Assembly: GCA_963810955.1 (NCBI GenBank)
Contig: CAWEPW010000043.1
Coordinates: forward strand, 37,034 to 101,033
Reading direction: 5' to 3'
DNA length: 64,000 nucleotides
DNA from: an uncultured Acidobacteriaceae bacterium
GTDB lineage: Bacteria > Acidobacteriota > Terriglobia > Terriglobales > Acidobacteriaceae
The notes below the pieces were generated by a model. It had not been told where the DNA came from. It searched no databases and saw nothing but the letters and a program-made list of their open reading frames with translations. The position numbers and the translations under genes were made by a program. The stretch's first letter is position 1, and the number at the start of each line of letters is the position of its first letter. Of this stretch, positions 14,174-58,723 are shown in pieces.

Positions 14174-15363
14174 CTAGCCAGCCGGAGGACGCGTTCCCAG
14201 CTGATCAAGTTCTATCCGTGACGGAATGGCGCGCCCATGTCGCAGCGCCTGGTAGACCCACGCAAACAATGCTGAATTGATCATGCAAAAATAGTAAGGG
14301 AGCCGCAGAACTTTGGGCTTGAGGCTAGCCATAGCGCCCAGTACAGCGAGCCCATAGAAGAGCACTTGCCCGAGCAACAACCAGTCGTAAGGGAATTGTC
14401 CGCGCAAAGCGATATTCGCTCCAAGCGCGATGAGCATAAAGATGGGCACCAGCAGCCGCCCGGTTTTGTGAGAGAGCAAACAGAAGAGGACAAACGGCCG
14501 CGGCGGCCAGATCAGCCCTTTGATCTCCCGCAATTGTTCGATGTTGCCGGCCGTGATTCGCACGCGGCGGGAGAATCCCTCCATTTCATGAGCCTCTTCA
14601 TAGGCCACGGCTGCCGGTTCGTAGGCCACGCGATGTCCCTGTTCAACAATGCGCATCGGAATCGTGAAGTCGTCGTTGATGGTGTTGAGCGGCGGAAATG
14701 GATAAAGCGCGCGACGAATGGCATAAAGAGATCCGTGCGCGCCAGTAAATGCGCCGAGCTTGGCCTCTTGCACTTTCAGGAAAGTTTCATATTTCCAGTA
14801 GAGATCTTCTTGCGACCCAAGGTGGGCCTGATCTTTCTTCAGGAGCCGGTAAACTCCGCTGGCCGCGCCCACCCGCGCATCGTTGAAACTCTGCACCAGC
14901 ACGCGGAGAGAGTCGGCGGCCAACATGCTGGAAGCGTCGGAGAACGCTACGATGTCTCCGCGCAATTCGGGCACGGCATCGTTAAGAACCGCCATCTTTC
15001 CGCGATTCTTCTCATAATTGAGCAGGCGAATTCGTCCGTCGCTTCCGGTGTCGCTTCGTTTTCGCTTTTATAAAATGACCGCACAATTTCAGCCGTGGCA
15101 TCCTTCGACCCATCCGATGCGACCACGATTTCCAGCTTGTCGGCCGGGTAGTCAAGCGCAAGACTGTTGCGGATTTTGTCCGCGATAACAGCGGCTTCGT
15201 TGTAGGCGGCCACCAGCAGCGAAACGGACGGCTCAATCGGCTCCCGGCGCGGCGCGGCGCGAACCACACCCTGCAGCAGCCACAGCAGAATCGGATAACC
15301 GGCGTAGACGTAGACCGTAACCCCCGCCGAAATCCAGAACAGAAGCCTGGTCGTCATTAGCAA
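14174..15363 (-). CDS. Membrane-embedded family 2 glycosyltransferase (synthase-like, with TM segments at both ends). Split into two frames by an indel near 15040-15075
   Basis: N-terminal part (14947-15363): TM helix then LLVAAYNEAAVIADKI...LEIVVASDGSKDATAEIV. C-terminal part (14174-14995): NYEKNRGKMAVLNDAV..DIVAFSDASS..QEDLYWKYE..TGAHGSLYAIRR followed by several TM helices. Confidence 0.65.
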
Positions 15364-15370
15364 TACTGCC

Positions 15371-16056
15371 TTAGATGGCCGTAGACCGGATGCAATGCAG
15401 TTGCCCGAGAATCTCGTGCGAATCGATGCGGAATCCGGCGCGCTTCAAATAGTCTTCCGCCTGCGCCTGCGTGAAGAAATAGACCGGGCAGCCGTCCGCC
15501 TTGAGGCGCACCTTGCGAATCGATGCGCGCAGAGTCGCGGCGCGCGGCCATGCCGACAAGAAACGTCTTCTTCGTAATTCCGCGGATCACCTGCAATCTC
15601 GGCAACGGGTCGGCCACGTAATCCCAGAATCCGATCGCAATCACCTGATCGAACTTCTGGTCCGTCTTCCAGTCGAGCACATCGCTGAGCACGAACTTGC
15701 AGCGATCCGCGACACCCTTCTTTTTCCACCAGTTGCTGACTCAACCTCAGCATCTCCGGAGCAAAGTCCAGGCCGGTAACCTGCGCGCCGCGTTTGGCCA
15801 GCGTCGCGACAAAGCGTCCCGAACCGCAGCCGACGTCGCAGATCGTCATGCCGTTCAAGTCAGGGGACGGGCCTGATTCGCGCATGACCCACTCGTAGCG
15901 CTGGTAAATGTCTTTTCTCAGCCATTTATCCAGGCCGCGGCCGATCGGGCCCTTGTTGCCTGTATAGATCGCGTCGAAATCGTTGGCGATGTCGTTCCAG
16001 TATTTCGCTATCTGCTCAGATTCGTCAGTTTTTGTTTTCGTGGCTGTTCCATTCAT
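15371..16056 (-). CDS. Class I SAM-dependent methyltransferase, spread across three frames (two frame changes near 15712 and 15545)
   Basis: ICDVGCGSGRFVATLAKRGAQVTGLDFAPEMLRLSQQLVEKEG in frame 1. ..FVLSDVLDWKTDQKFDQVIAIGFWDYVADPLPRLQVIRGITKKTFL in frame 2. CPVYFFTQAQAEDYLKRAGFRIDSHEILGQ in frame 3. Confidence 0.65.
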
Positions 16057-26458: not shown

Positions 26459-27338
26459 TCAGCCGATGCGTGCCGGGCGCGGCTTGGGAACGTAGGCTTG
26501 TTTTGGCGGAGTCACCTGCAGCAGCGACCTGCTCCCGACGTGCATGAAGCTCAACTCGCGCGCCGAAAGCAAGGCATGGATGGACTCTTTAACGCGGGTG
26601 CGAGGAACGAAGTTTGCGAGAAATGTTTCGGCCTCTGCTTCATCGACAGCCACCATGCAGCCGAGATATTTCGAGGCCAGCGCCGAGAGTGCTTGCGGTA
26701 CAGAAAGGCCAACGCCTTCGCGAACGACCTCCGGCGCCCAGCGCGACAACTCGTCCCACACCGAACCTTCTTCAACTGTGTAATCGACGCGTGTGATGCG
26801 GAGCTTGCTCCACAATTCACTGAGAGCGCGATCGAGGCCAGCGTCAGAAAGGGAGCCACCGAGCAATTCTCCCAACTTCGATTTAGAAATCGGGCCGCGG
26901 CGGCGGATGATCTCGAAGGCGTCGCAGGCTAGCTGTGAATAAGGAGAGCGTGGTCCCGCTCGCGGGCGGTTGCTTCGGGTTACGCTCGCCAACTAGAGAA
27001 TAAAAATAAGGGAATACGGAAGGCGCGAGCAGGAAGGCGTTGTTCTCTTCGAAAAGCGGGGCCTCGTAAGCCGCCCGATCGCGGAGGGCGCGCACCATCA
27101 ATTCAGTCGCTTCTTTGGCTCGCGGATCGTTATAGGCGTGCTGGCGGGTGGGCAGGTTGTCGTCAGCTCCGACCCAAGCGCCGATGAAAGTCGGCACCAG
27201 CACCGCTGGACGCATCGGATACATCAGGCAGAATCCGACTTCCTCCAGAAACGCACGTGCGTCGTCGAGAGTTCGCATGGGCTGGCCGTCGACGCGCCAC
27301 TTTTGGGCTCGGGCCTGTTGGAGTTCTAGGTCAGTCAT
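26459..27338 (-). CDS. Hypothetical protein in two overlapping frames (26883-27338 and 26459-26992); possibly a winged-helix domain protein interrupted by an indel
   Basis: Two adjacent same-strand ORFs overlap by ~110 nt with no recognisable gene boundary. Function not established. Confidence 0.3.
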
Positions 27339-27480
27339 TGACTTCAGATTAGAACACAGGCCAGCTCGCAGCTCTCAACCTAAGATCTCAGAGGGATATC
27401 CCGCGCCGACGGTCAGTCGCTTTTCCGCGTTCCTAAGACACGCAGCTTGCCGATCCCATTCTAGCGCCTAGGGTGACAGA

Positions 27481-29585
27481 CTAGATTCTTTTGAATGCCT
27501 TCTGAATATCCTGCATGGAGTAGCGCAGCACGACTGGCCTGCCATGTGGGCAGGTCATGGGATGGTCGGTCTTGGACAGTTCGGAGAGCAGCCATTCCAT
27601 TTTGTTTTGTTCCAGTGGCATGTTGACCTTGATAGCGGCGTGGCAGGCTATGGAGGCGGCAATTCGAGTGCGCACGGCTTCGAGATTGATGGCTTGCTCT
27701 TCGCGAGTCAACTGTTCGAGGATTTCGTTGAGCAGGTGCTCGATTTGCGCGGCGTCTACGCCGGCAGGGGCGAGTTTGACCGCAACGCTGCGGGCTCCGA
27801 AGGGTTCGGCCTCAAAACCGTTGTGGGACAGTTCTTCGGCAATTTGCTGAAGAATAGCTTGCTGCGCAGGCGTCAGTTCGATGATGAGCGGCATCAGCAG
27901 GCGTTGGCTTTCCACCTGCTGGCCTGCGCGCTGGCGCACGATGCGTTCGAAGAGCACGCGCTCGTGAGCGACGTGCTGATCGATGATCCAGAGGCCATCT
28001 TCGTTGACGGCCAAAATAAACGAGTTTCGAATCTGGCCTAACGGTCGCAGCGTGCGACAGCGATTCGAGGGTCGGCGAGTTTGCGGTTCCTGCGCGATGG
28101 GCGGAGCACAGCCATGATCGGGAACCGGTTCTGGATTCATCGTCAGTGGCGCAACTGCGCTTCTGGCACTCCCGCAAGCGACAGGGCGGCGTTTCCTCGA
28201 CTGCGATTCCGGCGGCAAACTCAAAACGCGCCGTGACTGCGGGAATAGCCGGCGCTTGCAGTCGCGAATCCCCGGCCGCCGCCGGTTCATACAAGTCGCG
28301 CCATGGGCTGCGACGGTGCAGTGCATCGGTCTGCTGCCGCCATCGGCGAAGCGGGAGTTACCTGTGCCGGGGCTGCTAAGCCCGGGAGTCGCCGAAGGCT
28401 GCGCTTTGATTTCCTTCAGGAATTGCGGCACCGGCCGCGCTTTCATCAACGCCGCCCGCACCGACTCGCGCACGAAATCATGAATCACCGTCTGCTGGCG
28501 GAACCGCACTTCAGTCTTTGAAGGATGCACATTCACATCCACCTCGGCGGTGGGCATTTCGATAAAAAGCAGAACGACTGGAAAGACCGTCGGCGGCAGA
28601 ATATTGCGATAGGCCTCGACGATGGCATGTTGCATAAGCCGATCGCGAATCAGCCGTCCATTGACGAAAATGAAAATCGAATTGCGATTGAGCTTCTGAA
28701 TTTCCGGCTTGGAAACAAAACCGTGCAGCCGCAATTCACCGAAATCTGGGGCGCCGACACTGTCCGCGAGTCCGCTGCTGTCTCATCTGGAGGTGCTGCT
28801 TCCCCTGCCTTAGAGGGGGCTTCGCGGACAAGAGTGTTCGCGCCACCCGTTTCGCTGCGCCGCCACGGCGGGGGCTGCGGAAGCCCAACCCGCTCCAGCG
28901 GCTGCACCGCCGCCAGCGGAATCAACTGGTCGAGCGTCTCGCCTCCGAATACCTGGTAGACACGTTCGCGATGGCCGGCCACGGGCGGCGCCACCAGCAA
29001 TGCATTCGTGGCCGAGTGCAACTCAAAATGCTTTTCAGGATGCGCCAGCGCGTAGTGCGTTACAAGCGATGCGATATGCGATAGTTCAGTCGACTCCGAA
29101 CGCAGAAATTTTTTGCGCGCCGGCGTATTAAAGAAGAGATCGCGAATCGTGATCGCAGTTCCCAGTGGCAGGCCTGCCTCTTCGACGCGGATGATTTTGC
29201 CGCCGTTGATCTCGAGAACCGTTCCCGCCGCTTCTTCGTCGGCACGCGTTTCCAGATGCAGGCGCGCAACCGAAGCAATGGACGGCAGCGCCTCGCCGCG
29301 AAAACCCAGGGTCGCAATGCTCAGCAGGTCGTCGGTATCTTTGATCTTGGAAGTCGCGTGGCGCTCAAATGCGAGCATGGCATCGTCGCGCACCATGCCG
29401 CAGCCGTTGTCGGTGATCTGGATCAGCTTCTTCCCTCCCGCCTCAACCTGTATGCGAATGCGCGTGGAACCAGCGTCCAGCGCGTTCTCGAGCAACTCCT
29501 TCACCACCGACGCGGGACGTTCGACCACTTCGCCGGCGGCGATCTGGTTGGCGACTCTTTCGGGAAGAACGTGAATTTTGCCCAT
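27481..29585 (-). CDS. mutL: DNA mismatch repair protein MutL, split into an N-terminal ATPase ORF (28650-29585) and a middle-plus-C-terminal ORF (27481-28734) that overlap in different frames
   Basis: N-terminus: HVLPERVANQIAAGEVVERPASVVKELLENALDAGSTRIRI..ITDNGCGM (GHKL ATPase). C-terminal ORF: LHGFVSKPEIQKLNRNSIFIFVNGRLIRDR...TDHPMTCPHGRPV. The junction region (28740-28900) is unusually long and frame-shifted. Confidence 0.8.
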
Positions 29586-30594: not shown

Positions 30595-30781
30595 GTCGCG
30601 GAAGTTATCAATCGTGCCGCGAGGGACTGCCTACCATCATCGCTTCTCGGCTGGAGGTGATGATAAGCTTTCTGTTCGGACTTTCACGTGCGAGGCGAGC
30701 TTAGCATTTTCGAAGAGCGAAATTCCGCGCTTGCCGCCAGGACGACAGATGGAGCCCGACCACGATCCCGATCCCAGTACA

Positions 30782-31878
30782 ATGACCACGCCCGAGCCGG
30801 CATATGGAGTGCCCGCCCTTGCCCAGGCGGTAGCTTCGCCGCTTACACGCGCCGCTATCTTTCTGGTCGCCACGCTCAAACCGGGCTCTGACAATCGCGC
30901 AACCTTGCGCTCGTTCTGCGGCGACCTCGCCGCGCTGTTGCGCGCGGTGGAATTTCGCGACCTGGAGGGACAACTTTCCTGCGTCATGGGATTTGGGTCC
31001 GACGCATGGGACCGCCTCTTCGGGACGCCGCGGCCGGCAGAACTGCACCCGTTCCGGGAGATTCGCGCCGGAGCGCGCCATGCGGTCTCCACCCCGGGCG
31101 ACTTGCTGTTTCACATCCGCGCCAAGCGCATGGATCTTTGCTTCGAGCTGGCCACGTCAGTTTATGGCTCGCATCGGAAATGCTGTTTCGCCGGTGGACG
31201 AAGTGCAGGGCTTCCGTTACTTTGACGATCGCGATCTCATGGGTTTCGTCGACGGTACGGAGAATCCCGAGAGGAGCAGCTGTAAACGACGCCGTCCTCA
31301 TCGGCGCCGAGGATGCTGGCTTTGCCGGCGGCAGCTACGTGCATCGTGCAGAAATATCTTCACAACCTTGACGCATGGAATGCGCTCTCCACCGAAGCGC
31401 AGGAACGCGTCATTGGCCGCACCAAGCTTTCCGACATCGAATTGGACGACTCCGTCAAGCCAACGTCGGCGCACAGCGCGCTCACTACCATCGTCGAGAA
31501 CGGGAAAGAGATCAAGATTCTGCGCGACAATATGCCTTTCGGCCGGCCCTCGCAGGGTGAATTTGGCACCTATTTTATCGGCTACAGCCGTTCGCCCCGC
31601 ACCATCGAGCAGATGCTCGAGAACATGTTCGTCGGCCGGCCGCCCGGCAACTACGACCGGATACTCGATTTCAGCCGCGCTGTCACCGGAAGTCTGTTCT
31701 TCGTGCCATCCGCGACATTTCTGGAAAACGTGACTGAAGATCCGGCTGTGGTTGTGGATTCCTCCGCTGCACCAGTGGCGGCCGAACCGCAGTTCATCTG
31801 CACCGTCTTCATCCACATCGGCGTGCCGAGGGTTCGCTCGGCATCGGTTCCCTCAAAGGAGACATACGACATGAATAA
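30782..31878 (+). CDS. Dyp-type peroxidase (encapsulin cargo) with a C-terminal targeting peptide. The reading frame changes about four times (near 31162, 31245, 31345 and 31835)
   Basis: AIFLVATLKPG, GDLLFHIRAKRMDLCFELA (frame 2). ARIGNAVSPVDEVQGFRYFDDRDLMGFVDGTENP (frame 0). RGAAVNDAVLIGAEDAGFAGGSYV (frame 1). IVQKYLHNLDAWN...GRPSQGEFGTYFIGYSRSP...TGSLFFVPS (frame 2). EGSLGIGSLKGDIRHE-stop (frame 1), where the stop overlaps the encapsulin start. Confidence 0.7.
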
Positions 31879-32689
31879 TCTGCATCGCGAGCTTGCTCCC
31901 ATTTCCGATTCGGCGTGGGCTCAGATCGAAGAGGAGACAACGCGCACGCTCAAGCGCTACCTCGCCGGTCGGCGCGTTGTCGACGTGAAGGGGCCGGCGG
32001 GCACGGGCCTTTCTGCCGTCGGCACCGGCCACCTGCGGACGATCACCGCCCCGGCGAAGGGCATCGTCGCGAGGCAGCGCGAGGTGAAGGCGCTGGTCGA
32101 GCTGCGTGTTCCATTCGAACTGGATCGCCAGGCGATCGACGACGTCGATCGTGGCGCGAACGACTCAGACTGGCAACCGGCGAAGGACGCCGCGCGACAG
32201 ATCGCCTTTGCCGAGGATGCCGCGATATTCGAGGGTTATGCCGCCGCCGGCATTGAGGGCATCCGTCAGGGGACCAGCAATCCGATCATGACGCTGCCGG
32301 CCGACGTGCGCGAATACCCGGAAGCCATTGCGCAAGGCTTGAGCCAGTTGCGTCTCGTCGGCGTCAACGGCCCCTATTCCGTGCTGCTTGGCGCCGACGC
32401 CTACACCGCACTCGCCGAGACCAGCGACCACGGATACCCGGTGCTGGAGCACGTCAAGCGGCTGGTCAAAGATGAAATCATCTGGGCGCCCGCCATTGCC
32501 GGCGCTTTCGTGCTGACCACTCGTGGCGGCGATTTCGACCTGCACATCGGCCAGGACGTCTCCATCGGCTATCTCAGCCACACCGATACCGCCGTCCGCT
32601 TGTATCTGCAGGAGACGTTTACCTTCCTCCTGCTCACCAGCGAGGCTGCCGTCGCGCTGGCTTCTCCCGCAAAGGCAAGAAAAACCTGA
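31871..32689 (+). CDS. Family 1 encapsulin shell protein (linocin M18 / CFP29-like)
   Basis: MNNLHRELAPISDSAWAQIEEE..GRRVVDV..LVELRVPF..IDDVDRGANDSDW..FEGY..GIEGI..GPYSVLLGADAYT..SDHGYPV..IIWAPAI.GAFVLTTRGGDFDL..VRLYLQETFTF, colinear with M. tuberculosis Enc Rv0798c. 272 aa, intact. Confidence 0.85.
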   Translation: MNNLHRELAPISDSAWAQIEEETTRTLKRYLAGRRVVDVKGPAGTGLSAVGTGHLRTITAPAKGIVARQREVKALVELRVPFELDRQAIDDVDRGANDSDWQPAKDAARQIAFAEDAAIFEGYAAAGIEGIRQGTSNPIMTLPADVREYPEAIAQGLSQLRLVGVNGPYSVLLGADAYTALAETSDHGYPVLEHVKRLVKDEIIWAPAIAGAFVLTTRGGDFDLHIGQDVSIGYLSHTDTAVRLYLQETFTFLLLTSEAAVALASPAKARKT

Positions 32690-32714
32690 AGCTAGACAGG
32701 GACTCAAATCGAGC

Positions 32715-33494
32715 ATGCTCATAGAAATCGGACATGTGGAGGCGATCTTCCGCTATCCCGTCAAGTCTATGGCCGGCGAACGACTCGATGCCGCCGATCT
32801 GGGCTGGCACGGCCTCGATGGCGACAGACGCCTGGCATTCCGGAGGGTGAACACTGACGACCGCAGCGGGTTCCCGTGGCTAACCGCAAGCAAGCTGCCC
32901 GATCTGCTCCTGTTTGCTCCGCAGCGTCGCGAAGCCGAGGTTCGTGAGGACGGTGCTCAGCGAGACCTTCACCTTCCCACGCATGTTCGCACGCCGGATG
33001 GCGAGGACTTGCCTGTCTTCGGCGGAGACCTGGCCGCGGAGGTGGGACGGCGATATGGGGCTCCCGTGGAGATGATGCAGATGAAGCATGGCATCTTCGA
33101 TGACGCGAGCGTCTCCGTGATCGCCTCCGAGACAGTGCGCGAGATCGGACGACTTGCGGGACAAAACCCCGACGTGCGACGATTTCGCCCGAATGTCGTG
33201 GTTCGTTCACTGCGACCGGTTCCGTTTCAGGAGGATGAGTGGGTGGGCGGAGTGCTGTCATTCGGCGAAGGGGACGACGCGCCCTCCATTGCGGTCACGA
33301 TGCACGACGTCCGCTGCTCGATGGTGAACCTTGATCCTGACTCGGCAAGCCCAGCGCCGGAAGTGCTGAAGGCGGTCGTTCGCGCGAACCAGAACAACGC
33401 GGGAATCTACGGCACAGTCACTCGCACCGGTCGACTGGCGGTCGGACAGACCATACTGCTCCGAGGGGCGACGGAGAAAAAGGAACATGCGTGA
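32715..33494 (+). CDS. MOSC domain protein (MOSC N-terminal beta-barrel plus MOSC domain)
   Basis: MLIEIGHVEAIFRYPVKSMAGERLDAADLGWHGLDGDRRLAF...RPNVVV. The ATG at 32715 lies inside the longer track ORF 32523-33494. Confidence 0.65.
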   Translation: MLIEIGHVEAIFRYPVKSMAGERLDAADLGWHGLDGDRRLAFRRVNTDDRSGFPWLTASKLPDLLLFAPQRREAEVREDGAQRDLHLPTHVRTPDGEDLPVFGGDLAAEVGRRYGAPVEMMQMKHGIFDDASVSVIASETVREIGRLAGQNPDVRRFRPNVVVRSLRPVPFQEDEWVGGVLSFGEGDDAPSIAVTMHDVRCSMVNLDPDSASPAPEVLKAVVRANQNNAGIYGTVTRTGRLAVGQTILLRGATEKKEHA

Positions 33495-33582: not shown

Positions 33583-34341
33583 TCAGATGCCGGCGTACCA
33601 GGCGTAGCCCCCTTCTGGAGCCGCCGAGCCGAGGCCTTTGCCGAAACCTTTCAGACTGTCGGTGACCGTCAGGTGAGTGATGAATTTCACGCTCTTGTAG
33701 CCGAGTTGGCGGGCGACCCGCAGGCGAAGCGGTCCGCCGTTGCCCACGGGCAGTTCACCGCCATTCATCCCATAGGTCAGAAAAGTCTGGGGGTGCAACG
33801 CGTCGGCCATATCGATGCTTTCCCACCAGTCGGGCTCGATTGAGAAGTAGACAACGTATCTGGCTTGCGGGTGGACTTCCACCGTTTGCAGAATTTGAGA
33901 GAGAGGCACGCCGATCCATTCGGCAATATAGGACCATCCCTCTTCACACTGCACCATCGTGATCTGGCTGTGAGACGGATAGCTTTTCAACTGGTCAAGA
34001 GAAAAAGACGTCGGCCGGGCGACCATACCGCTGACGGAAAGCCGCCAATCAGCGAATCCCCCGGCCTGGAGACTCTTGAACGCCTCATTCGGTGGGGCTA
34101 ATTCATTCGCGAAAGGGGGGTTCGAGATCTGGCTCCTCGAGAATTCACGCGCTAAAGAGTGCTTGGTCAGCAGACGCTGCGAGGCATAGGTCAGGGTTTC
34201 GCCGAGACCCCAGATTCCACCATGATCGGGCGGGATGAGCCCGTACTTTTGCGCAAGGAGCGCGGCCGCTCCGAGGCCCGCTGCTCCGGCCGTAGCCGCG
34301 AGTCCGGTGGTGATCAGTTTGCGGCGTGAAATATCGCTCAT
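33583..34341 (-). CDS. Molybdopterin-dependent oxidoreductase of the sulfite-oxidase / MsrP (YedY)-like family with a Tat signal
   Basis: MSDISRRKLITTGLAATAGAAG twin-arginine motif; Oxidored_molyb-like body. The start overlaps the upstream gene's stop (ATGA). Confidence 0.65.
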   Translation of the reverse strand: MSDISRRKLITTGLAATAGAAGLGAAALLAQKYGLIPPDHGGIWGLGETLTYASQRLLTKHSLAREFSRSQISNPPFANELAPPNEAFKSLQAGGFADWRLSVSGMVARPTSFSLDQLKSYPSHSQITMVQCEEGWSYIAEWIGVPLSQILQTVEVHPQARYVVYFSIEPDWWESIDMADALHPQTFLTYGMNGGELPVGNGGPLRLRVARQLGYKSVKFITHLTVTDSLKGFGKGLGSAAPEGGYAWYAGI

Positions 34342-35195
34342 GTGCGTTCCATATATGTATCGGCGTGAGGTGTAGCGGCGCGTCCCGTGATCATCGCTCG
34401 CATGCGGCTGATGAATCCGGCACGCCAAACCATTACAACGTGGACCAGGAAGAAAACCAGGATCGCCAGGGAGACGAAGAAGTGAAGCGTGCGCGCCGAT
34501 TGTTGGCCGCCTAAGATGTTGACCGTCGCCGGAAACGCGGAAACGAACGTGGGAGACATGGCCAGGCCCGTCCAGATTACCAGGGGGAACAGAACAAAGA
34601 TCACGAACAAATAGGAGAGCCGCTGGAGCAAGTTATACGACCACGCTTCTGCCTCATTCGGTCGCCTGAACCGGACATGGCCGGCGACTGACTTCGAGAA
34701 CGTTCTCCACGACAGATCGGTTCTATCGGGGAGCAGGCTCTTGCGGAAATGGCCGGTGAAGAAGCCGAAAATTACATACAGCACGCCGGTGAATATGATC
34801 ACCCATGCGGATTGAAAATGAAGGTATCGGCTCCAGCCATTCTCGTCCGGCAACACGTATCCATAACCGGTCGGCACCAAACGCCTTGATGCGGGAATGT
34901 GCAGTTTGAACAAGGTTGGAGTCAAATCGTTGCCGGTCTCGCCCCAATAGAAGCGCGGGTGAGAGAAAACGATTGCAGATCCGCTGACCAACAGGGCCAG
35001 AAAACACAGAGTAGTAATCCAGTGCGTGACGCGAACCAGGGCAGAATGCCGCGCAGGAACCGTCTTCGTCAGGACGGTGTTTGAGACGGCCAATAGGGCA
35101 CTTGGGACGCAGGCGGAGTCGCCCATGCTGGAAATGGTACCATGCGGCGCCAGCGTTGCGCGTGCTAGACGGACCACGGAATCGCCATCTTCCAA
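34338..35195 (-). CDS. b-type cytochrome membrane subunit (cytochrome b561 / MsrQ-like), partner of the upstream molybdoenzyme. The true start is probably downstream of 35195
   Basis: RHSALVRVTHWITTLCFLALLVSGSAIVF and multiple TM helices with conserved His. Confidence 0.55.
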   Translation of the reverse strand: MEDGDSVVRLARATLAPHGTISSMGDSACVPSALLAVSNTVLTKTVPARHSALVRVTHWITTLCFLALLVSGSAIVFSHPRFYWGETGNDLTPTLFKLHIPASRRLVPTGYGYVLPDENGWSRYLHFQSAWVIIFTGVLYVIFGFFTGHFRKSLLPDRTDLSWRTFSKSVAGHVRFRRPNEAEAWSYNLLQRLSYLFVIFVLFPLVIWTGLAMSPTFVSAFPATVNILGGQQSARTLHFFVSLAILVFFLVHVVMVWRAGFISRMRAMITGRAATPHADTYMERT

Positions 35196-35250: not shown

Positions 35251-38200
35251 CTATTCCGCAGGGTCGTAGTTCAGGTTTTGCCCGAGCCATCGCTCGATCT
35301 CGGCCACGCTCATCCCCTTGCGTTTGCTATAGTCGGCGACTTGATCGCGGTCGATCTTGCCGAGACTGAAATATCGCGACTCCGGATGCGCGAAGTAAAG
35401 CCCGCTCACGCTCGAACCAGGCCACATCGCAAACGATTCCGTGATCAGCATCCCTGTATTGGCCCGCACATCGAGCAATCGCCAAAGGGTGCCCTTCTCC
35501 GTGTGATCCGGGCAAGCCGGATAGCCCGCAGCCGGCCGTATGCCCCTATATTTCTCGTGGATGAGATCCGCGTTGCTCAGACCTTCGCCACAACCGTAAC
35601 CCCATTGTTCCCGCACCCGCTTGTGCAGGCACTCGGCGAAAGCTTCAGCCAGGCGATCGGCAATCGCCTCGGCCATGATCGCGTTATAGTCGTCGTTCTT
35701 CGCGCGGAACCCGTCGCACAGTTCCTTCAATCCGATTCCGCTCGTTACGGCGAATGCACCGACGTGATCGGACAACCCCGTTTCCTTGGGCGCGATGAAG
35801 TCAGCAAGCGATCGGCACGGCTCGCTGCCCTCTTTATTGGATTGCTGACGAAGGAAGTGGAAACGCTCGAGCGTCTTTTCGTGTTTGTTATCCGTGTAGA
35901 GTTCGACATCGTCGCCCACGGCATTGGCTGGAAACAAGCCGTAAACGCCCCGCGCCGTGATCAGGTTTTTCCCCACGATCTGATCCAGCAGCGCATTGGC
36001 TTCGGCAAAGATCTGCCGGGCCTGTGCGCCTTGTCCTTCGTGCTCAAGAATGCGGGGATAAACTCCCTTCAGCCCCCAGGTGTGAAAAAACGGCGTCCAG
36101 TCAATGAAGTCGCGGAGCGTCGCCAGCGGAAAGTTGTCGAGCACCCGCACACCGGTAAATGACGGTGTAGGCAGGTCTTCGGCACGCCACTCAATGGGAG
36201 TTCGTCTCTTTCGCGCGGCCTCAAGCGAGATGACGCTTATCTTCTGCGCGGAATGGGACTTGCGAAGCGCATCGTAATCCGCGCGATGTTGCGCCACGAA
36301 TGCCGGCTTGCCCTCGTCGCTCAGAAGGCTGGTCGTCACCGGCACCGCCCGGCTGGCATCCAGGATGTGCACCACCGGCTCGCTATAGTGAGGCGCGATC
36401 TTGACGGCGGTGTGCGCCCGGCTCGTGGTTGCCCCGCCGATAAGCAGCGGCAATTTGAAGCCCTGCCGCTCCATCTCGCGGGCAACGTGCACCATCTCGT
36501 CGAGAGAGGGCGTGATCAGGCCGCTGAGTCCGATGAGATCCGCCTTTTCCGCCTTGGCGCGTTCCAGGATTTTTTCGCACGGGACCATCACTCCCATATC
36601 GATCACTTCATAGTTATTGCAAGCAAGGACCACGCCGACTATATTCTTGCCGATGTCGTGAACGTCGCCCTTGACGGTAGCGAGAAGGATTTTTCCCTGC
36701 GCCTTGACCACCTGGCCAGAGGCAGCCATCGCGACTTTCTCGGCCTCCATGAACGGCGTCAGGTGCGCCACCGCCTTCTTCATCACGCGGGCCGACTTGA
36801 CCACTTGAGGCAAGAACATCTTTCCCGCGCCGAACAGATCGCCGACCACACCCATGCCGGCCATCAAGCGGGCCCTCGATCACCAACAGAGGGCGGCCGA
36901 GCTTCAAGCGGGCTTCTTCGGTATCGAGTTCAATATAGGCGTCGATTCCCTTCACCAGCGCGTGGGAAAGACGCTCCTCGACCGTGCCGTTGCGCCATTC
37001 TTCGGCCTTTTTCTCACTTACTGCCTTGCCGACGCCTTTTAGCTTTTCGCCATAGTCCACCAGCCGCTCGGTCGCATCTGGACGGCGATTCAGCAGCACA
37101 TCCTCGACCAGAACCTTCAGCTCAGGCTCAATTTCTTCATAGACCTCGAGCATTCCGGCATTGACGATACCCATGTCCATGCCCGCGGTGATGGCGTGAT
37201 AAAGAAACGCGGAGTGCATGGCCTCACGCACCTTGTTATTGCCCCGGAAGCTGAAGGAGATATTCGAGACGCCGCCGCTGACTTTTGCGTGCGGCAGATT
37301 GGCCTTGATCCAACGCGTGGCGTTGATGAAATCAACCGCGTAGTTGTTGTGCTCCTCCATGCCGGTGGCAACGGTGAGGATGTTCGGATCGAAGATGATG
37401 TCTTCGGGGGGAAAGTCAACTTCGTCAACCAATATCCTGTAGGCGCGCTCGCAGACGCGGATCTTGTCGTCGAAAGTCGCGGCCTGGCCCTGCTCGTCGA
37501 AGGCCATCACCACCACAGCCGCGCCATACTTCATGACCGTGGCGGCGTTGTGGCGAAACTTCTCTTCGCCTTCTTTCAGCGAGATTGAATTGACAATACC
37601 CTTGCCCTGTAGACACTTCAGCCCCGCCTCGATAACCTCCCATTTCGAGGAGTCGATCATGAAAGGCACCTTGGCGACTTCGGGTTCGCTGGCCAGCAGT
37701 TGCAGGAAGCGCGTCATGGCGATGACGCCATCGATCATGCCCTCGTCCATACAAATATCGAGGACATTCGCTCCATTCTCAACCTGCTGACGGGCAACGC
37801 TTACCGCTTCTTCGTATTTACCCGCCTTGATGAGTTGCGCGAATTTGGGCGAACCTGCCACATTGGTTCGTTCGCCGATCACGATATAAACCCCAGGTTG
37901 TTGCGTGAACGGCTGCGATCCTGAGAGACGAAGCGGCTTGATCTCCCCCGCCTCGGGCACACTTATGATATCGGCCACACTCACTCTCTGCTCTCGCTTT
38001 GAATTGCGTAGGACCCCTCAACGAGCGTCGTGCCCCATCTTCGCGGGGGCTGGCCTTCGAGCGCCTTGGCGATAGCCGCGATGTGCTCGGGCGTATTGCC
38101 GCAGCAACCGCCAGCGATGTTGATCAGCCCTCCTCGCGCGAAGTCGCCGAGATAACGAGCCATATCCTGCGGCCTGAGATCGAAGCCGGTTTCCGACAGC

Positions 38201-39111
38201 GGATTCGGCAACCCTGCATTCGGGTAACACGAGATCGCCACGTCCGCCTTTTCCGAGAGATCTTCGAGAAATGGATACATCAGATCGGGACCGAGAGAGC
38301 AGTTGAGTCCGACTGATAACGGTTTCACGTGCCGCACCGCGTTCCAGAACGCCTCGGTCGTCTGCGCCGAGATCATCGTCTCGCCGCCACGTCCCACCGC
38401 CGCCGAGATCATCACTGGCAGTTCTTTGACATCATGGTCGAACACCTCACGGATTGCGACAAGTGCGGCTTTGGCGTTCAGCGAGTCGAAGATCGTCTCG
38501 ACTAAAAGCAAATCCACGCCGCCAGCGATAAGACCTCTTACCTGCTGCGCGTAGGCTGTCTTCACCTGATCGAAAGTGACCACTCGAAAGCCTGGATCGT
38601 CGGCATCGGGCGAGTTCGACAGAGAAACGGTCAGCGGCCCAATCGCTCCCGCCACGAATCGCTCACGCGAGGTTGCGGTTCCGATGCGGTCGGCCCATTC
38701 ACGGCACTGCCGCGCCGATTGCTCATTGATATCCCAAGTCAGGCCGTTAAGAAACGGATCGTCGACGACCTTTTGGTAGAACGCGGGGTCTTTGCGGCCG
38801 CCGCGTTCCCGCGGATCTTCGACAAAGAATTCGCTCTGGGTGATACTGGTTGCTCCGAACGTATTGGTCTCGATAATGTCCGCTCCCGCCTCCAGAAACC
38901 GGCGATGGATGTCACCGATCATTTCCGGCTTAGTAAGCGAGAAAAGATCACCGTTGTTCAGAAGGCTCTTCGTCGCGTCCTTGAATCGTTCTCCCCGGAT
39001 GTCCGCTTCTGTCATGCCGTAGCTGCGGATGGTCGTGCCCATCGCTCCATCGATGATGACAATGCGATCTTCGAGGATCTTCTCAAGAGTATGTTGGCGG
39101 GCTTTTATCAT
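35251..39111 (-). CDS. metH: Cobalamin-dependent methionine synthase MetH, present as three consecutive ORFs in different frames: Hcy-binding 37981-39111, pterin-binding 36614-37984, B12-binding plus AdoMet-activation 35251-36867
   Basis: All four MetH modules are present and colinear. At the junction near 36865, EGPL / [32 protein letters not shown] is separated by one extra g (cttgatg). The junction near 37985 changes frame by 2. Confidence 0.85.
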
Positions 39112-44512: not shown

Positions 44513-47449
44513 ATGCGTTTTTCGGTATTGTCTTTATTGCTCTTCGGCGCGCTTAGTGGGGCCGCCCAAGTTTTCTCTACGGCTGCGCAAGCGCTCTATG
44601 ACGGGCAACAGGTAACCGCTGTCGACCTTATTGCCAATCCCCATCGCAACGTGGAACCTCTACGAGATTACATTACGCAACATGCCGGAGAACCATATTC
44701 CGAAGCGAAGGTGGAGGCCAGCATCAACGCGCTGCAAAAAAACGGAGGTTTCCAAAAAGTCACGGCCGATGTTGTTCCGGACATCTCCGGCGTGCGGCTG
44801 AATTTTATTCTTGAGCCTGCCTATTACCTGGGAGTGATCGAATTTCAGGGAGTCGCAAAGTCGTTTTCTTATTCACGCCTGCTTCTAACGGTAAATTTGC
44901 AAGACGAAGATCCTTATGACCAAGCGCGCATCCCGATGGCGAAGGCAGCGTTATTGCACTTTCTCCAACACGATGGATATTTTCTGGCAACGGTGGCGGT
45001 TGAGCCGCATATCGACGATACCAATCAAATAGTAAATATTACCTTCACGGTGGCCATGGGAAAGCAGGCCCGCATTGGGCGCGTCGCGGTTGAAGGTCCG
45101 GCGGAGCCGGCACAGGCCTCGTTGGTTCATAGCACGCGTTCGCTGCGCGCGAGGTTCACAGGCGCACTGCTCAAGCCGGGAAAGCCTTACACCCCGGCAC
45201 GGATAAAAGCTGCAATCAAGGCGATGAAGAGGTCACTCAGGCAACAGCATCGACTGGCCAGCACGGTCACCGAACTACCTCCCCAATATCATACGGAGAC
45301 GAATCGGGTGGACGTCTCGTTCAAGATTGAAACGGGGCCCGTGGTGATCATTCGCACTACAGGCGCGCGTCTTTCTTCGATCCCTTTCATGTCAAGCCGG
45401 GAAATGAAGAGACTCATCCCCATTTACTCCGAGGGCGCGATCGATTCCGACCTGGTCCAGGAGGGACAGAACAATCTCGTGGACTACTTTCAGAAGAAGG
45501 GCTTCTTCGACGTCAAGGTAACCACAGATTTCGAGAAGCAAGCTGATCAACTTTCGCTCGTATATAAAATCGATCGCGGCAAAAAGCACAAGGTGGGACG
45601 GATTGCCTTCCGCGGCAATAATCAGATAGCCGCAAAGGCCTTGTTACCCCAGGTCGCAATCCACAAATCTCACATCTGGTCACATGGCAACATTAGTCAG
45701 AAGCTGATTAAACAGAGTGTCGATAACCTCGAAGGCTTCTATCGCGATAAGGGTTTTGAGGATGTGAAGGTTACCCCACTGGTCGCGGAACATGATCCGC
45801 AAATCGACGTCACGTTTGAAATCACTGAGGGACAGCAGACACTCATCGACAGCATACGTGTAACCGGAAACCGCAGCGTGCCGCAAAATCAACTGGCCGC
45901 TCCAAAAGGCTTTAAATTAAAGGTTGGCGCGCCATTTTCCGCGCGGCGAGTGACCGACGATCGTAATCGTATCTCGGCAACCTATTTGGAGCGCGGATAT
46001 CTCAATGCCGAAGTTAAAGCGAGCGTGAGCCGCCATTCCGGCGACCAACACCGCGTGGACGTGACTTACACCATCGAAGAGCATCAATTGGTAAGTATGA
46101 AAAACGTTATCTACCTGGGCCAAGAACACACGCGGCTGTTGTTGATCAAGAAAACCGCGAACCTGCGGCCCGAGGCTCCGATGGAAAGAGGCCAGATGCT
46201 CGCGGCGGAGAGCCGACTTTATGACTTGAATGTGTTCGATTGGTCGAGCGTTGGACCGCGGAAGCCAATCACCGATCAGATGGACGAAGACGCCATCGTC
46301 AAAGTGCACGAAGCTCAGCGCAACGAGATTACATACGGGTTCGGATTTGAGGTGTCGCATCGTGGAGGCAACATACCCAGCGGAACCGTCGCCGTGCCGG
46401 GTCTGCCGGTCGTTGGCTTGGGGAGCAATCAGATTGCACCGAGCCAGGCTCTCTATGCCAGCCCTCTGGGGTCGATCGATTTCACGCGGCGAAATATGAG
46501 GGGGCTGGCGGAGACCGCGAGCGCTTCGATTCTGTTGTCGCGGCTCGACCAGCGCGTGCTCGCCACTTATTTGCAGCCGCACTTTCTTGGGTCGGGATGG
46601 AGTTCGCTGACCAGCTTCTCTGTTGAGCGCACTACCGAGAATCCGCTGTTTGCGGCAGGCCTGGGCGATGTGTCATTCCAACTCGAGAAACTCATCAGCC
46701 GGAAGGATCATACGAGGCTGCAGCTCCGCTACGATTTCAATAAGACCGACTTGTCGCACCTGCTGGTGCCTGAACTGGTGCTGCCGCAGGATCGCAACAT
46801 TCACCTCTCCACGTTTTCGGGGACACTCATTCGCGACAGCAGGGACAAACCCTTGGACGCGCATCGCGGTGTTTTCGCGACTCTCGACTTGAGGATTACG
46901 CCGATTAGTCTTGGCTCCAGCGCAAATTTTGCCAAGGTCTTCGGACAATATTCTTTCTATAAGCCGATTCATTCGCTGGTTTTCGCCAACAGCGTACGGC
47001 TGGGATTGGCGAAGGCATTCAATGGAAGTTTTGTGCCCACCAGCCAACTTTACTTCTCCGGGGGTGGAACGACTCTGCGCGGCTTTCCAATTAATGAAGC
47101 CGGGCCGCAACGTCTGGTGCCGTTCTGCAACGTCCTCAAGGGTCAGACGGGATGCGTCAACGTCACCCTGCCGGTCGGCGGGAGGCAGTTGTTCATCTTG
47201 AACTCGGAGATGCGTTTTCCGCTTCGGGTCATGAAGGATCTGGGAGGAGTCGTATTTTACGACGGGGGAAACGTTGACAGCGCCATCAGCTTCCACGACT
47301 TTACGAACAACTATACGAACACCGTCGGGATTGGCTTGCGGTATGCAACGCCGATCGGGCCCATTCGCATCGATTTGGGGCGCAACTTAAACCCTGTGCC
47401 CGGGATCAATCCGACACAGTACTTCATCACGTTAGGTCAGGCGTTTTGA
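44513..47449 (+). CDS. Omp85 (BamA/TamA) family outer-membrane protein with POTRA repeats and a C-terminal beta-barrel
   Basis: Signal peptide MRFSVLSLLLFGALSGAAQ. Repeated POTRA-like units, then a C-terminal barrel ending ..YFITLGQAF. Intact, ~980 aa. Confidence 0.75.
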   Translation: MRFSVLSLLLFGALSGAAQVFSTAAQALYDGQQVTAVDLIANPHRNVEPLRDYITQHAGEPYSEAKVEASINALQKNGGFQKVTADVVPDISGVRLNFILEPAYYLGVIEFQGVAKSFSYSRLLLTVNLQDEDPYDQARIPMAKAALLHFLQHDGYFLATVAVEPHIDDTNQIVNITFTVAMGKQARIGRVAVEGPAEPAQASLVHSTRSLRARFTGALLKPGKPYTPARIKAAIKAMKRSLRQQHRLASTVTELPPQYHTETNRVDVSFKIETGPVVIIRTTGARLSSIPFMSSREMKRLIPIYSEGAIDSDLVQEGQNNLVDYFQKKGFFDVKVTTDFEKQADQLSLVYKIDRGKKHKVGRIAFRGNNQIAAKALLPQVAIHKSHIWSHGNISQKLIKQSVDNLEGFYRDKGFEDVKVTPLVAEHDPQIDVTFEITEGQQTLIDSIRVTGNRSVPQNQLAAPKGFKLKVGAPFSARRVTDDRNRISATYLERGYLNAEVKASVSRHSGDQHRVDVTYTIEEHQLVSMKNVIYLGQEHTRLLLIKKTANLRPEAPMERGQMLAAESRLYDLNVFDWSSVGPRKPITDQMDEDAIVKVHEAQRNEITYGFGFEVSHRGGNIPSGTVAVPGLPVVGLGSNQIAPSQALYASPLGSIDFTRRNMRGLAETASASILLSRLDQRVLATYLQPHFLGSGWSSLTSFSVERTTENPLFAAGLGDVSFQLEKLISRKDHTRLQLRYDFNKTDLSHLLVPELVLPQDRNIHLSTFSGTLIRDSRDKPLDAHRGVFATLDLRITPISLGSSANFAKVFGQYSFYKPIHSLVFANSVRLGLAKAFNGSFVPTSQLYFSGGGTTLRGFPINEAGPQRLVPFCNVLKGQTGCVNVTLPVGGRQLFILNSEMRFPLRVMKDLGGVVFYDGGNVDSAISFHDFTNNYTNTVGIGLRYATPIGPIRIDLGRNLNPVPGINPTQYFITLGQAF

Positions 47450-50400
47450 TGATGTCATGGCGTAGATTCGCGGGCTGGACGTTGACGGCGCTCGGCGTGT
47501 TGCTGCTGGTTGGGGCGCTGGGCGGATACCTGTTTCTCGAGAGCAACAGTTTCCGGAGAACGGCAATACGCACAATCGTCAAGGACGCGAATGAGGCCAC
47601 TGGCGGCAGAACTGAGATTGGCGGTCTTGACATTCAGCTATCGACGCTGACTGCGCGCCTTTACAACATCACGCTGCATGGCACGGAGTCGCCTGCGCAA
47701 CCGCCCTTGCTGAGGATCGACAAACTTACCGTTGGCATAAGAATTGAGTCACTGCTGCGCCGGAAGGTCAGTTTCGGTGAGCTTGAAATCGAACACCCGG
47801 TTGCCCATGTGTTCGTCGACCTGCAGGGACACAGCAACATTCCATCACCACCACCAACGGCGAGCAATTCGACTGGCAGGCAAACGAATGTTTTCGATCT
47901 GGCCGCCCGGCATGTGCTGCTGACTGGCGGAGAAATCACCTACAACGACACGACGACTCCTTTGGAGGCCGAGCTTTACGGTCTGCGAACCGAGATAGGC
48001 TTCGATCCGCTCGCCACGCGTTACCACGGATCCATTTCATACAGCAGCGGACTGCTGCGCTATGCGAATGACGCTCCTTTCCAACACAGTCTGGACGCCA
48101 ATTTTGATGCGACTCCCTCGCGCTTTACGCTTGATTCGGCAAAGTTGAACGTCGGGTCATCCGCGATATCCCTGCACGCCGAACTCGCCGACTACAGCAA
48201 TCCTACGATTGAAGGCGAATACGATATTCGCATTCACACGCAGGACTTCGCGGCGATGGCGCAACCCATCATCCCTGCGGGCGATCTCTCGCTGGCCGGC
48301 ACTCTTCATTATCACAGGGTAAGCGATCAGCCGCTGTTGCAGAACATTGCGTCTAATGGACAAGTCGAGAGCGCCAGGCTCGTCATCCGGTCAAGCGACG
48401 GGCAGGTCGACGTGCGTAAGCTGCAGGGCAAATATCAGCTTTTGAACGGGGTGTTACAGCTGCACGACATGGCCTTTAATGCGCTCGACGGACGCGTAGT
48501 CTCCGACGTCGGGATTCAGAATCTTGATAAACTTCCCATCGCACATTTGCGAACCACAATGACCGGAATTTCTTTGCGGAGTGTGCAGCACGCTGTGCGC
48601 AAATTGGGCGTCCCCCCCTTGGAGTTACTCGGCAAAGTCGATGGGACTGTCGAAGCTTCATGGACAGATAACATCAGCAATATCCGAGCACATACCGATC
48701 TGCGTGTCCTGGCTCCCGCGAGCAGCGAGCTCTCCTCAAAGGCAATTCCGCTGAGTGGAGCCATTCACGCGTCTTACGACGGATCTCGGAATATCATCGG
48801 CCTTTCTCAAACTACGCTCCATATTCCTTCGCTAACTATCGATGCTCAGGGGCAGCTCGGTAGCCGTTCGAATTCGAATCTGCAGATTCGCGGAAACGCC
48901 AGCGATCTGCATCAACTGTCGGAATTGCTGGGAGCGCTTCGCGGAGGGCACGCTCCGACCGAGATTACCGGTGCGGCTTCCTTTCAAGCCGTGGTACGAG
49001 GCTCGATGCAAAAGCCCACTCTGACGGGGCAGGTGGAAGCCCATAACCTCCAGGTCGAAGGCAGCGAGTGGAGCAGCGCCAGTTTCAAGGTCCAGGCAAG
49101 TTCTTCGGAAATCGTGTTGCAAGAGGCTGGTCTGGTCAGCGCTCATCAGGGCAACGCGTCGCTAAGCGCTCATGTTGGATTGACTAACTGGTCTTATCTG
49201 CCTTCGAGTCCAATCTCGGGAAGCCTGGCCGTGCAACGCCTGTCTATCGCCGACTTACAACATCTGGCTAACTTGCACTATCCCGTTTCCGGCGACTTAT
49301 CGGCTAAGATTTTCTTCCACGGTTCTCAACTCCAACCGGCCGGGAATGGAACGGCGACAATCGACAATGCTCGCGCATATGGCGAAGCGGTTCACCATTT
49401 CGCAGCGACTTTCCGAACGAATCAGGATTCATTGGTCTCGACGTTGGAGGTCATCATGCCCGCAGGCTCGGCCAGGGGCACAATCTCCTATACTCCAAAG
49501 ACAAAGGCGTACAGAGTGCGGCTTGATGCTCCGTCAGTTGCTTTGCAGAAATTGCAAATAGTTGAGGAGAAGAATCTTGGAATCGCAGGGACGCTGCAGG
49601 CAGCCGCCAGCGGTGAGGGAACGTTAGACAATCCGCAGTTAACGGCGACCGTTGCAATACCTCGATTGCAGCTGCGCGATAAATCGATCTCGCAATTAAA
49701 GGGAGAACTGCACATCACGAATGAGCGCGCGGAGTGGACGCTTGATTCAAATGTAGCTCAAGCTTCGGTTCGTTCCCGCGGCACGGTCAATCTAGCTGGA
49801 GATTATTACGCCGAAGCGACGATCGATACTGGCGATGTGTCCCTCAATCCCCTGCTGGCGATGTATGTACCCAATTTGCCGCCGGGCTTTCAGGGCGAAA
49901 CGGAACTGCATGCCACTCTAAAAGGCCCGTTGAAGGATAAATTGAGAATCGAGGCCCACGTCACGATTCCTATGCTGAAGGCGAGTTACCAATCCCTGGA
50001 AATCGGCGCCACCAGCCCGATTCGAGTGGACTACGATCATTCCGTCATCATGCTGCAGCCGGCCGAAATTCACGGCACCGCGACGTCTCTTCGATTGCAA
50101 GGGAATATTCCGCTCAATGGAAGTTCGGTCACCCACGCTCAGCGCTCAGGGCTCGGTGGATTTACGAATCATTCGCATACTGGAGCCTGATGTGCAGAGC
50201 TCGGGCACTCTTTTGCTTGACCTTCATGCCTCGGGGAGCGCCACGAACCCTGCAGTTCAAGGGCAAGTTCATCTTCGAGACGTTGCTTTGTCCACTCCTT
50301 CCGCTCCACTCGGGGTGCAGAACCTTAGCGGCGATCTAGACATCAGCAACAGCACCATACAGGTATCCAAACTCGCGGGAGAAGTCGGAGGCGGCCAGAT

Positions 50401-51374
50401 GTCTTTGGGCGGTTCAATTTCTTACCGGCCTAAACTCCAGTTCAACCTAACCATGCAGAGCGAATCGGTTCGATTGCTCTATCCCAATGGAATCAGGACG
50501 GTGCTGGATGGGAACCTGGCTCTGAACGGGACGAAGGACGCATCGACACTAAATGGCCGCGTGCTCATCGACAGTCTTTCGTTTACACCCGATTTTGATC
50601 TGGCAAAGTTCAGCTCTCAATTCGGTGAAAGCAGCCTGCCCGCCCAGCCGCGGCTTGCCGATAACATTAGACTTGCTATCAGTTTGCAGTCCAAGGGAGA
50701 TCTTAGCGCGAACAGTTCCCAAGTCAGCTTGGCAGGGCAAGTGAACCTGCAGGTGACCGGCACGGCGGCAAACCCCGTAATTATTGGTCGAACCGATCTG
50801 ACATCCGGAGAGGTTTTTTACCGTAATGTCAGGTACCAGTTGGAGCGCGGAATCATTACCTTCGACAATCCCAACGAGACAGAGCCGGTGTTGAACATCG
50901 CCGCCACCACGACCATTGAACAATACAATTTGACCATTGCGGTGCGAGGAACGTTCGACAAGTTATTGACCACTTACACCTCTGATCCGCCGCTGGCTAC
51001 CGCAGACGTCATCAACCTTATTGCCCAGGGACATACCACCCAGGACCAGAATGCCGGCCAGTCAAAGTACGGATTCGATAATTGCTTCTCAGGTTACAAG
51101 CCAGGTTACCAGCAGCATTCAGCAACTGGCGGGTATTTCCAGTTTGCAAATTGACCCGCTGTTGGGCGGAAACAATCAGAATCCCTCCGCGCGGGTTGCG
51201 CTTCAGCAGCGCGTGTCCAAGAATTTCTTGTTTACGTTTTCGACTGATCTCTCGCAACCCGGCACCGAAGTCGTGGAAGGCGACTACCAACTGAACAAAC
51301 ACTGGTCGGTCAGCGTTACGCGAAATGAAGTAGGAGGAATCTCGGTCGACGGAAGGTATCGCAAGAAGTTTTGA
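47449..51374 (+). CDS. tamB: TamB-like translocation and assembly module protein (DUF490 C-terminus), present as three ORFs in different frames (47446-50190, 50117-51154, 51021-51374)
   Basis: N-terminal membrane anchor MMSWRRFAGWTLTALGVLLLVGALGGYLF. Long repetitive beta-rich body. C-terminus ..LFTFSTDLSQPGTEVVEGDYQLNKHWSVSV. The start overlaps the Omp85 stop. Confidence 0.7.
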
Positions 51375-55693: not shown

Positions 55694-55717
55694 CGGAAAG
55701 AGAAAAATCTGGCGCCT

Positions 55718-58418: not shown

Positions 58419-58723
58419 CTTAGCTGCTCTATTCAGAACGATGTCTCCCGGATGCCCACTGGTGGCCTGAAATTAACACCCTCACAAAAGCGCGTCAAGA
58501 TTTGGAGTCGCGCAATTTGCGAAGTGCTTAACCACCAAGACCACGAGGTTGCACGAAAAAAACAAACACACCCCCATTGACCGCCTGCAAACATAACTCT
58601 GAACCTTTCAATAATTGCGCTGCCGACGCTGGCCAGGCGTTACAATGGCCCACTCTTGTTCTGGAGCAAAACGGTTTGGTTAAGCCAGGAAAAGTCCGGC
58701 CAGCGAAAAAAATCTCGCCCGCC

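Follow-up and report, generated by a model that had tools for sequence, protein, structure and literature searches.

Dye-decolourising peroxidases (DyPs) are the commonest cargo of family 1 encapsulins, accounting for 1,505 of the 2,383 systems in a published census (PMC8346489). In such systems the shell protein self-assembles into an icosahedral compartment of the HK97 fold, and the DyP oligomer is captured at assembly by way of its C-terminal GSLxIGSLK sequence, which binds to the lumenal side of that shell. Once enclosed, the haem peroxidase is believed to contribute to peroxide detoxification and to resistance against oxidative stress (PMC8346489, PMC10960027, PMC12140327). Here we describe a DyP-encapsulin operon in a stretch of 64,000 nt, referred to below as the window, from an uncultured Acidobacteriaceae bacterium (GCA_963810955.1, contig CAWEPW010000043.1, positions 37,034-101,033 of the forward strand). 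Judged from its sequence, it is of the standard family 1 kind, a DyP cargo gene followed by a shell gene, and operons of this type are already known. In the deposited sequence the cargo gene is broken at five places, and these breaks are very probably a consensus artefact of the assembly of a strain-mixed soil metagenome from long reads.

The shell gene (31871-32689 of the window, + strand) encodes a protein of 272 residues and is intact. Its product matches PF04454 (Linocin_M18) over the whole of the Pfam model (1-253 of 253, E 5e-101), and the NCBIfam equivalog NF041155 (encap_f1, 'family 1 encapsulin nanocompartment shell protein') over positions 1-261 of 261, with 362.7 bits against a cut-off of 100. 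Residues 1-264 are collinear with residues 1-264 of the solved shells 9i8d, 7boj, 6i9g and 8u50 (E 1e-105 to 1e-114 overall, and 1e-110 to 1e-114 for 9i8d, Cfp29 and Linocin-M18), and alignment to these structures points to an encapsulin of the HK97 fold that has neither an E-loop of the family 2 type nor an N-terminal extension. Of these, 7boj is the mycobacterial Cfp29; an initial annotation of this DNA had called the shell colinear with Mycobacterium tuberculosis Enc. It was right that the shell gene is free of frame changes, none being seen in its 819 nt. The DyP gene lies directly upstream on the same strand, which is the architecture of family 1 DyP operons, and its TAA stop codon (31876-31878) overlaps the ATG of the shell gene (31871) by 8 nt, within ATGAATAA. 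A stop codon ends 8 nt into the shell gene at every one of 160 related loci (L001-L160), which were obtained by scanning species-representative genomes and JGI metagenomes. The earlier report of a family 1 encapsulin overlapping the DyP stop is confirmed. The overlap would couple the translation of the two genes. A scan for promoters and terminators around the operon gave nothing above shuffled expectation.

The DyP gene (30749-31878, + strand) belongs to the encapsulated subgroup of the B-type peroxidases, as judged from Pfam, TIGR01413 and Protein Data Bank (PDB) matches. It begins at the ATG at 30749, with an alternative ATG at 30782. In the raw sequence the DyP matches are spread over three frames: Pfam places Dyp_perox_N within 30782-31225, whereas Dyp_perox_C begins in a second frame (its first 21 positions, within 31143-31300) and is completed within 31313-31870. 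Removal of five bases yields an open frame of 374 codons with no internal stop, whose product matches TIGR01413 (NCBIfam) in one stretch with 299 bits, over positions 2-322 of the 323 in the model. The corrected protein aligns along its whole length with solved DyPs of encapsulin systems: residues 24-373 match the encapsulin-associated DyP of Klebsiella pneumoniae (8u4z) with E 1e-135, and the match to DypB of Rhodococcus jostii (3qnr) has E 3e-114. The motifs of a haem peroxidase emerge from re-analysis of the corrected protein, in which FVDGTENP, the SAH segment KPTSAHSALT, and ILRDNMPFG align with residues of 8u4z and 9e5e that are the same or equivalent; the 8u4z counterparts of the second and third segments are AH and ILRDNMPFG. 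The roles of the distal Asp of the GXXDG motif, of the proximal His and of the distal Arg we take from DypB, not from a structure of the present protein.

The gene ends, at 31828-31878 (+ strand), with a cargo targeting peptide, EGSLGIGSLKGDIRHE, and the TAA stop codon. Matches by tblastn, comparison with the relatives and alignment to PDB entries all identify this peptide: it is 100% identical to the tails of three related loci (L029, L008 and L043), it follows a linker rich in Ser and Pro, and its aligned counterpart in the K. pneumoniae DyP is GSLNIGSLK, while the motif GSLGIGSLKG is common to nearly all 160 relatives. The earlier assignment as a B-type DyP with a C-terminal targeting peptide is therefore confirmed by Pfam, by TIGR01413 on the corrected frame and by the alignment to 8u4z. 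By analogy with the characterised systems, the peptide would dock the DyP inside the self-assembling HK97-fold shell. The deposited sequence does not itself contain an uninterrupted open reading frame (ORF) for a member of the DyP family, on account of five +1 insertions, and this reduces confidence in that sequence, not in the assignment to the family.

The breaks were mapped on MAFFT alignments with 12, and then with 40, intact relatives, and their positions were refined by choosing those base removals that maximise similarity to seven relatives; coding frames were called across the whole window with a hidden Markov model (HMM) of codon usage. A filter based on GC content by codon position had been tried for the coding frames and was dropped as too noisy in favour of the HMM. 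All five breaks are +1 insertions of a single base relative to the aligned relatives, and all are given here on the + strand. Insertion 1 lies at 31156/7 in a Thr codon, where ACG|T (context ccacGTcag) stands for the single ACN of the relatives; it faces a gap in 12 of 12 and in 40 of 40 aligned relatives, and the HMM switches frame at 31157. Insertion 2, at 31265-31269, gives AAT CCC G after the GXXDG motif in FVDGTENP (context aaTCCCGaga; HMM switch at 31271), and insertion 3, at 31341/2, gives GTG|C in place of the single GTN Val codon of the relatives (context cgtGCatc; HMM switch at 31342). The remaining two were placed by alignment and fall in the Ser/Pro linker: insertion 4 at 31789/90 (CCG|C, context accGCagt) and insertion 5 at 31823-5 (GCG|T, context ggcGTGccg), at which the frame of the targeting peptide is entered.

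Because insertions 1-3, which fall in the catalytic core, are each +1 and sum to the original frame, the N-terminal part and the C-terminal half of the enzyme are both read in frame 2. Insertions 4 and 5 then move the reading from frame 2 to frame 3 and on to frame 1, so that the targeting peptide is read in a third frame; the frame between them reads SSSAPSSSTS, which resembles the linkers of the relatives. Because these two insertions put the cargo and shell genes in one frame, the C-terminal half of the DyP appears fused to the encapsulin in a presumably artefactual ORF of 458 codons (31313-32689, + strand), found both in the ORF list and as the public protein P0241. The initial annotation had also found the cargo frame to be broken, and the alignments uphold this, but it had proposed about four events of mixed kind where there are five insertions. 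Its first break was placed at a ttt run near 31162, while neither site 1 nor site 3 is a homopolymer run; the CCC run that it gave as near 31245 is at 31266-31268; and the 'missing g near 31835' is frame-equivalent to insertions 4 and 5 together but is less well supported. The same products recur in the public protein collection, where a single 138,581-bp NCBI/ENA contig is the source of P0241, of an exact 158-residue DyP fragment starting from 30749, of a 384-residue MutL fragment (P0121) and of a 203-residue methyltransferase fragment. Since these frameshifted products are public gene calls, the errors belong to the sequence as deposited and did not arise at a later stage.

The shell proteins of the 160 related loci are 84-95% identical to that of the window. 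Almost all of these loci come from metagenome-assembled genomes (MAGs) of Acidobacteriota (Terriglobales, Acidobacteriaceae, 'Sulfotelmatobacter', 'Acidoferrales') or from soil and peat contigs. The scans of genomes and metagenomes returned no relative with more than 95% shell identity, so there is no same-species short-read copy against which the five sites could be checked. With an intact DyP defined as one that is uninterrupted, has at least 340 codons and ends in ...GSLGIGSLKGD..HE, the gene is uninterrupted at 132 loci, truncated by a contig end at 22 and broken at six. At the DNA level the window is conserved with its relatives only over a cassette of 2.06 kb (30647-32705), at 80-87% identity, and DNA comparison with the 160 loci revealed no conservation of flanking genes; because only this cassette of about 2 kb is common to them, the loci could not supply reference proteins for other parts of the window. 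Closely similar cassettes are also found in bins labelled Xanthobacteraceae, Bryobacterales, Steroidobacteraceae and Alphaproteobacteria. The presence of the cassette between differing flanks and in differently labelled bins suggests either horizontal mobility or mis-binning.

Once corrected, the DyP gene carries no signal of decay. Over a core of 308 codons its protein identity to the relatives reaches 92.5%, and its ratio of nonsynonymous to synonymous substitution (dN/dS) against them is 0.099, compared with a mean of 0.094 for the same core between relatives (298 pairs, 5th-95th percentile 0.066-0.134). When the window was compared with all 132 intact relatives, none of the 308 core codons held a private nucleotide state. 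The corrected protein has a single private amino acid, which is at a variable position, where control relatives have 0-7. Five private insertions or deletions (indels) accompanied by no private substitution and by no stop codon form a spectrum unlike that of natural pseudogene decay.

Each of the five DyP insertions can be read as a doublet of synonymous third-position alleles: ACG|T (Thr), CCC|G (Pro), GTG|C (Val), CCG|C (Pro) and GCG|T (Ala). The same pattern fits the insertions in sat/cysC (CCC|A) and metH (CTT|G) and both of those in a methyltransferase gene, all described below. Thus each of the nine insertions that could be finely mapped in the window is doublet-compatible, where a simulation that adds single bases at random to the encapsulin gene or to the corrected DyP gives 48% (p ~1e-3). 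The six relatives in which DyP is broken (L010, L018, L020, L037, L046 and L058) are all Microflora Danica MAGs with names of the form 'MFDxxxxx.bin.N.N', which makes 6 of about 52 loci so named, against 0 of the 108 others, about 86 of which are evaluable (Fisher p ~0.001). Their bin names indicate that these six are long-read assemblies. The long-read MAGs of Microflora Danica come from highly microdiverse soils and were assembled from nanopore data by Flye followed by a single Medaka round (PMC12313526); Flye is known to collapse close strains into one consensus, and long-read indels to frameshift gene calls (PMC8302730, PMC9262707). The events in the broken relatives, too, are mainly single-base insertions outside homopolymers, with one homopolymer case in L020, and 6 of 7 in the core are doublet-compatible, bringing the count for window and relatives to 15 of 16 (p ~1.4e-4). 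Two of them, in independent MAGs (at about 5450 in L010 and about 5434 in L018), affect the same Leu codon and alignment column of DyP (CTC|G and CTT|A), which hints that consensus errors recur at sites that are naturally polymorphic.

One scheme would account for this pattern. Where co-assembled strains differ by a single-nucleotide polymorphism, the consensus would keep both alleles side by side and so gain one extra base; as such polymorphisms between strains are mostly at synonymous third positions, allele doubling would account for why the events are insertions, for their context and for their clustering. We infer this doubling, during consensus or polishing, and likewise the sequencing platform of the source contig.

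The initial annotation had set a scrambled cargo gene against an intact shell gene, which implied a peculiarity of the operon, and this does not stand, since frameshifts of the same kind occur in at least seven other genes of the window, where they split Pfam domains or homologue alignments. Beyond DyP the codon HMM gives some 14 candidate frameshifts, almost all of them offset by +1, and the average for the window is about 0.15-0.25 events per kb, at which an intact shell gene of 0.82 kb is unremarkable. If five events fell at random in the 1.95-kb operon, all would miss the shell gene with a probability of about 0.065, and the difference between cargo and shell is therefore not significant. 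Two stretches, DyP and a methyltransferase/GT2 region, are event clusters well above the window average.

Several of these other breaks could be placed closely. The mutL gene (27481-29585, - strand) is split at about 28750-28785, where DNA_mis_repair continues from model position 23 in a new ORF; its homologue P0122 maps to two frames, with a net -1 deletion at SAP|DFGEL (SAPYDFGEL or APHDFGE in relatives), the only deletion that could be resolved in the window. In metH (35251-39111, - strand) a break at about 36867 (CTT|G) leaves positions 1-38 and 38-73 of B12-binding_2 in separate ORFs. Also in metH, a 4-nt overlap at 37981-37984 between the homocysteine-binding and pterin-binding ORFs may be either a second frameshift or the mark of a genuinely split gene. 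A bifunctional sat/cysC gene (7995-9858, + strand) is broken at about 9400 (CCC|A), with positions 1-30 and 31-152 of APS_kinase in separate ORFs, and tamB (47446-51374, + strand) is split twice, at about 50131 and about 51100, its C-terminal end lying in a third frame. Within 14174-16056 (- strand) a GT2 glycosyltransferase gene is split at about 15043-15064 (model positions 1-51 and 51-159 in separate ORFs), with a junction offset that is deletion-like, and an S-adenosylmethionine-dependent methyltransferase gene carries two insertions, at 15714-9 and 15557-64, so that a 227-residue homologue of 91-96% identity is followed through three frames. The second-best match to this methyltransferase, P0002 (ENA, 348 residues), has a normal N-terminus that gives way to out-of-frame sequence running into the next gene; it is a frameshift product of another assembly, and shows that artefactual proteins exist in the public protein collection. 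A gene for an FG-GAP/ASPIC (CRTAC1-like) protein (55718-58472, - strand) is split into two ORFs at about 56600, and a gene for an AhpC-TPR protein (54451-55717, - strand) is a candidate for a further split at about 55474. The codon HMM also gives candidate frame switches at 13050 and 13898 (12167-14097, + strand) and at 26924 (26459-27374, - strand), in ORFs that have no Pfam match. An error profile consisting of insertions alone was considered and rejected, given the -1 deletion in mutL and the deletion-like GT2 junction.

Of the genes beside the operon, one encoding a MOSC-domain protein (32715-33494) starts 25 nt past the encapsulin stop codon. Further downstream, on the opposite strand (33583-35195, - strand), lies an MsrP/MsrQ-like pair, comprising a cytochrome b561 and a molybdopterin oxidoreductase that carries a Tat signal, whose genes overlap by 4 nt (ATGA) and are both intact.

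That the breaks in DyP are an assembly artefact of some sort is close to certain. For the more specific origin proposed here, the doubling of alleles in a long-read consensus of mixed strains, several observations count on the other side. Five events in 1.13 kb far exceed the average of the window and call for some local cause, which may be strongly diverged strains at this place or the recruitment of reads from elsewhere. The test for doublets is of moderate strength, its null standing at 48% and several of the sites fitting the extension of a short homopolymer as well. Lastly, the deletion in mutL means that the profile is not purely insertional. A consensus affected by random indel noise at low long-read coverage, with no mixture of strains, would account for frameshifts across the whole window, for the mutL deletion and for the homopolymer case in L020, and such errors are familiar from long-read assemblies (PMC9262707). 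The observed events are clustered and nearly all insertions, and the proportion of them that is doublet-compatible stands well above that expected by chance. In nanopore data, by contrast, noise consists for the most part of deletions and homopolymer errors. Purely random noise is on these grounds very improbable.

Genuine pseudogenisation, in which real indels killed the cargo gene, perhaps in a mutator with a broken mutL, and left an orphan shell, is very improbable. The breaks are there in the deposited sequence, mutL is itself frameshifted, and the events cluster in DyP beside a clean shell gene, all of which speaks for it; yet selection on DyP is not relaxed, private substitutions are absent from its core and the corrected frame has no stop codons. 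The insertions lie outside homopolymer runs, where mismatch-repair mutators give indels, and they take the form of allele doublets at synonymous third positions. Moreover, the conserved genes metH, tamB and sat/cysC are broken likewise, and among the relatives the defect is confined to MAGs with bin names of the long-read type. A mutator arising from mutL was accordingly rejected as the cause, the indels not being in homopolymer runs and there being no substitution load. That the insertions are real and mark a recent loss of the peroxidase cargo, with retention of an intact and still-selected shell, we consider highly improbable; were it so, the family 1 encapsulin, now an orphan, might contain nothing or might take up a different cargo, and the 458-residue ORF joining the C-terminal half of DyP to the shell would be a real product. 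Programmed recoding, by which DyP would be made through +1 ribosomal frameshifting or transcriptional slippage at five sites, has nothing in its favour except the common sign (+1) of the five events. Five independent events in one gene would be unprecedented, the sites have neither slippery runs nor a common motif, none of the 132 intact orthologues needs such a process and unrelated genes in the window are broken likewise, so that recoding is vanishingly unlikely.

The biological gain from this locus is small, hundreds of near-identical cassettes being present already in assemblies of soil Acidobacteriota. It serves rather as a caution, for the public record holds a 158-residue DyP fragment, a 458-residue 'fusion', a truncated MutL and a truncated methyltransferase, and artefacts of this kind could pass for pseudogenes, orphan shells, new fusion architectures or a natural fusion of cargo and shell. 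The signature of tandem synonymous alleles could in turn provide a cheap diagnostic of strain-collapse errors in long-read MAGs. The breaks resemble the frameshift errors described from long-read assemblies in that single-base indels truncate or fuse gene calls across unrelated genes (PMC9262707, PMC8302730), and in that they are absent from short-read assemblies of the DyP family. They differ from the classical long-read error, the homopolymer deletion, being mostly insertions outside homopolymers at synonymous sites, which would point to collapsed strain variation rather than to a bias in base-calling.

The operon was compared with the DyP encapsulins of K. pneumoniae (8u4z and 8u50; PMC10960027), of enterobacteria (PMC12140327) and of Mycobacterium (Cfp29/DyP, 7boj and 7bok), and also with Linocin-M18 of Brevibacterium linens (6i9g) and DypB of R. 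jostii (3qnr). It is unlike the published family 1 DyP systems in its host, an uncultured lineage of Acidobacteriota (Terriglobales-like), most of the DyP systems in the published census being from Actinobacteria and Proteobacteria (PMC8346489). It is unlike known DyP systems also in that the cargo gene as deposited has five extra bases. No functional difference is evident, and the locus does not depart from what is established for family 1 DyP systems. With some 160 cassettes from soil and peat Acidobacteriota it shares a shell of 84-95% identity, a DyP core of up to 92.5% identity, the 8-nt overlap and the targeting peptide, while differing from them in its flanks; 132 of those cassettes have an uninterrupted DyP gene, and six are broken as in the window. 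With the family 1 DyP systems as a whole it has in common a two-gene operon with the cargo gene upstream, a DypB-like peroxidase in which a Ser/Pro linker precedes a C-terminal GSLxIGSLK, and a shell protein of 265-272 residues that is collinear over residues 1-264.

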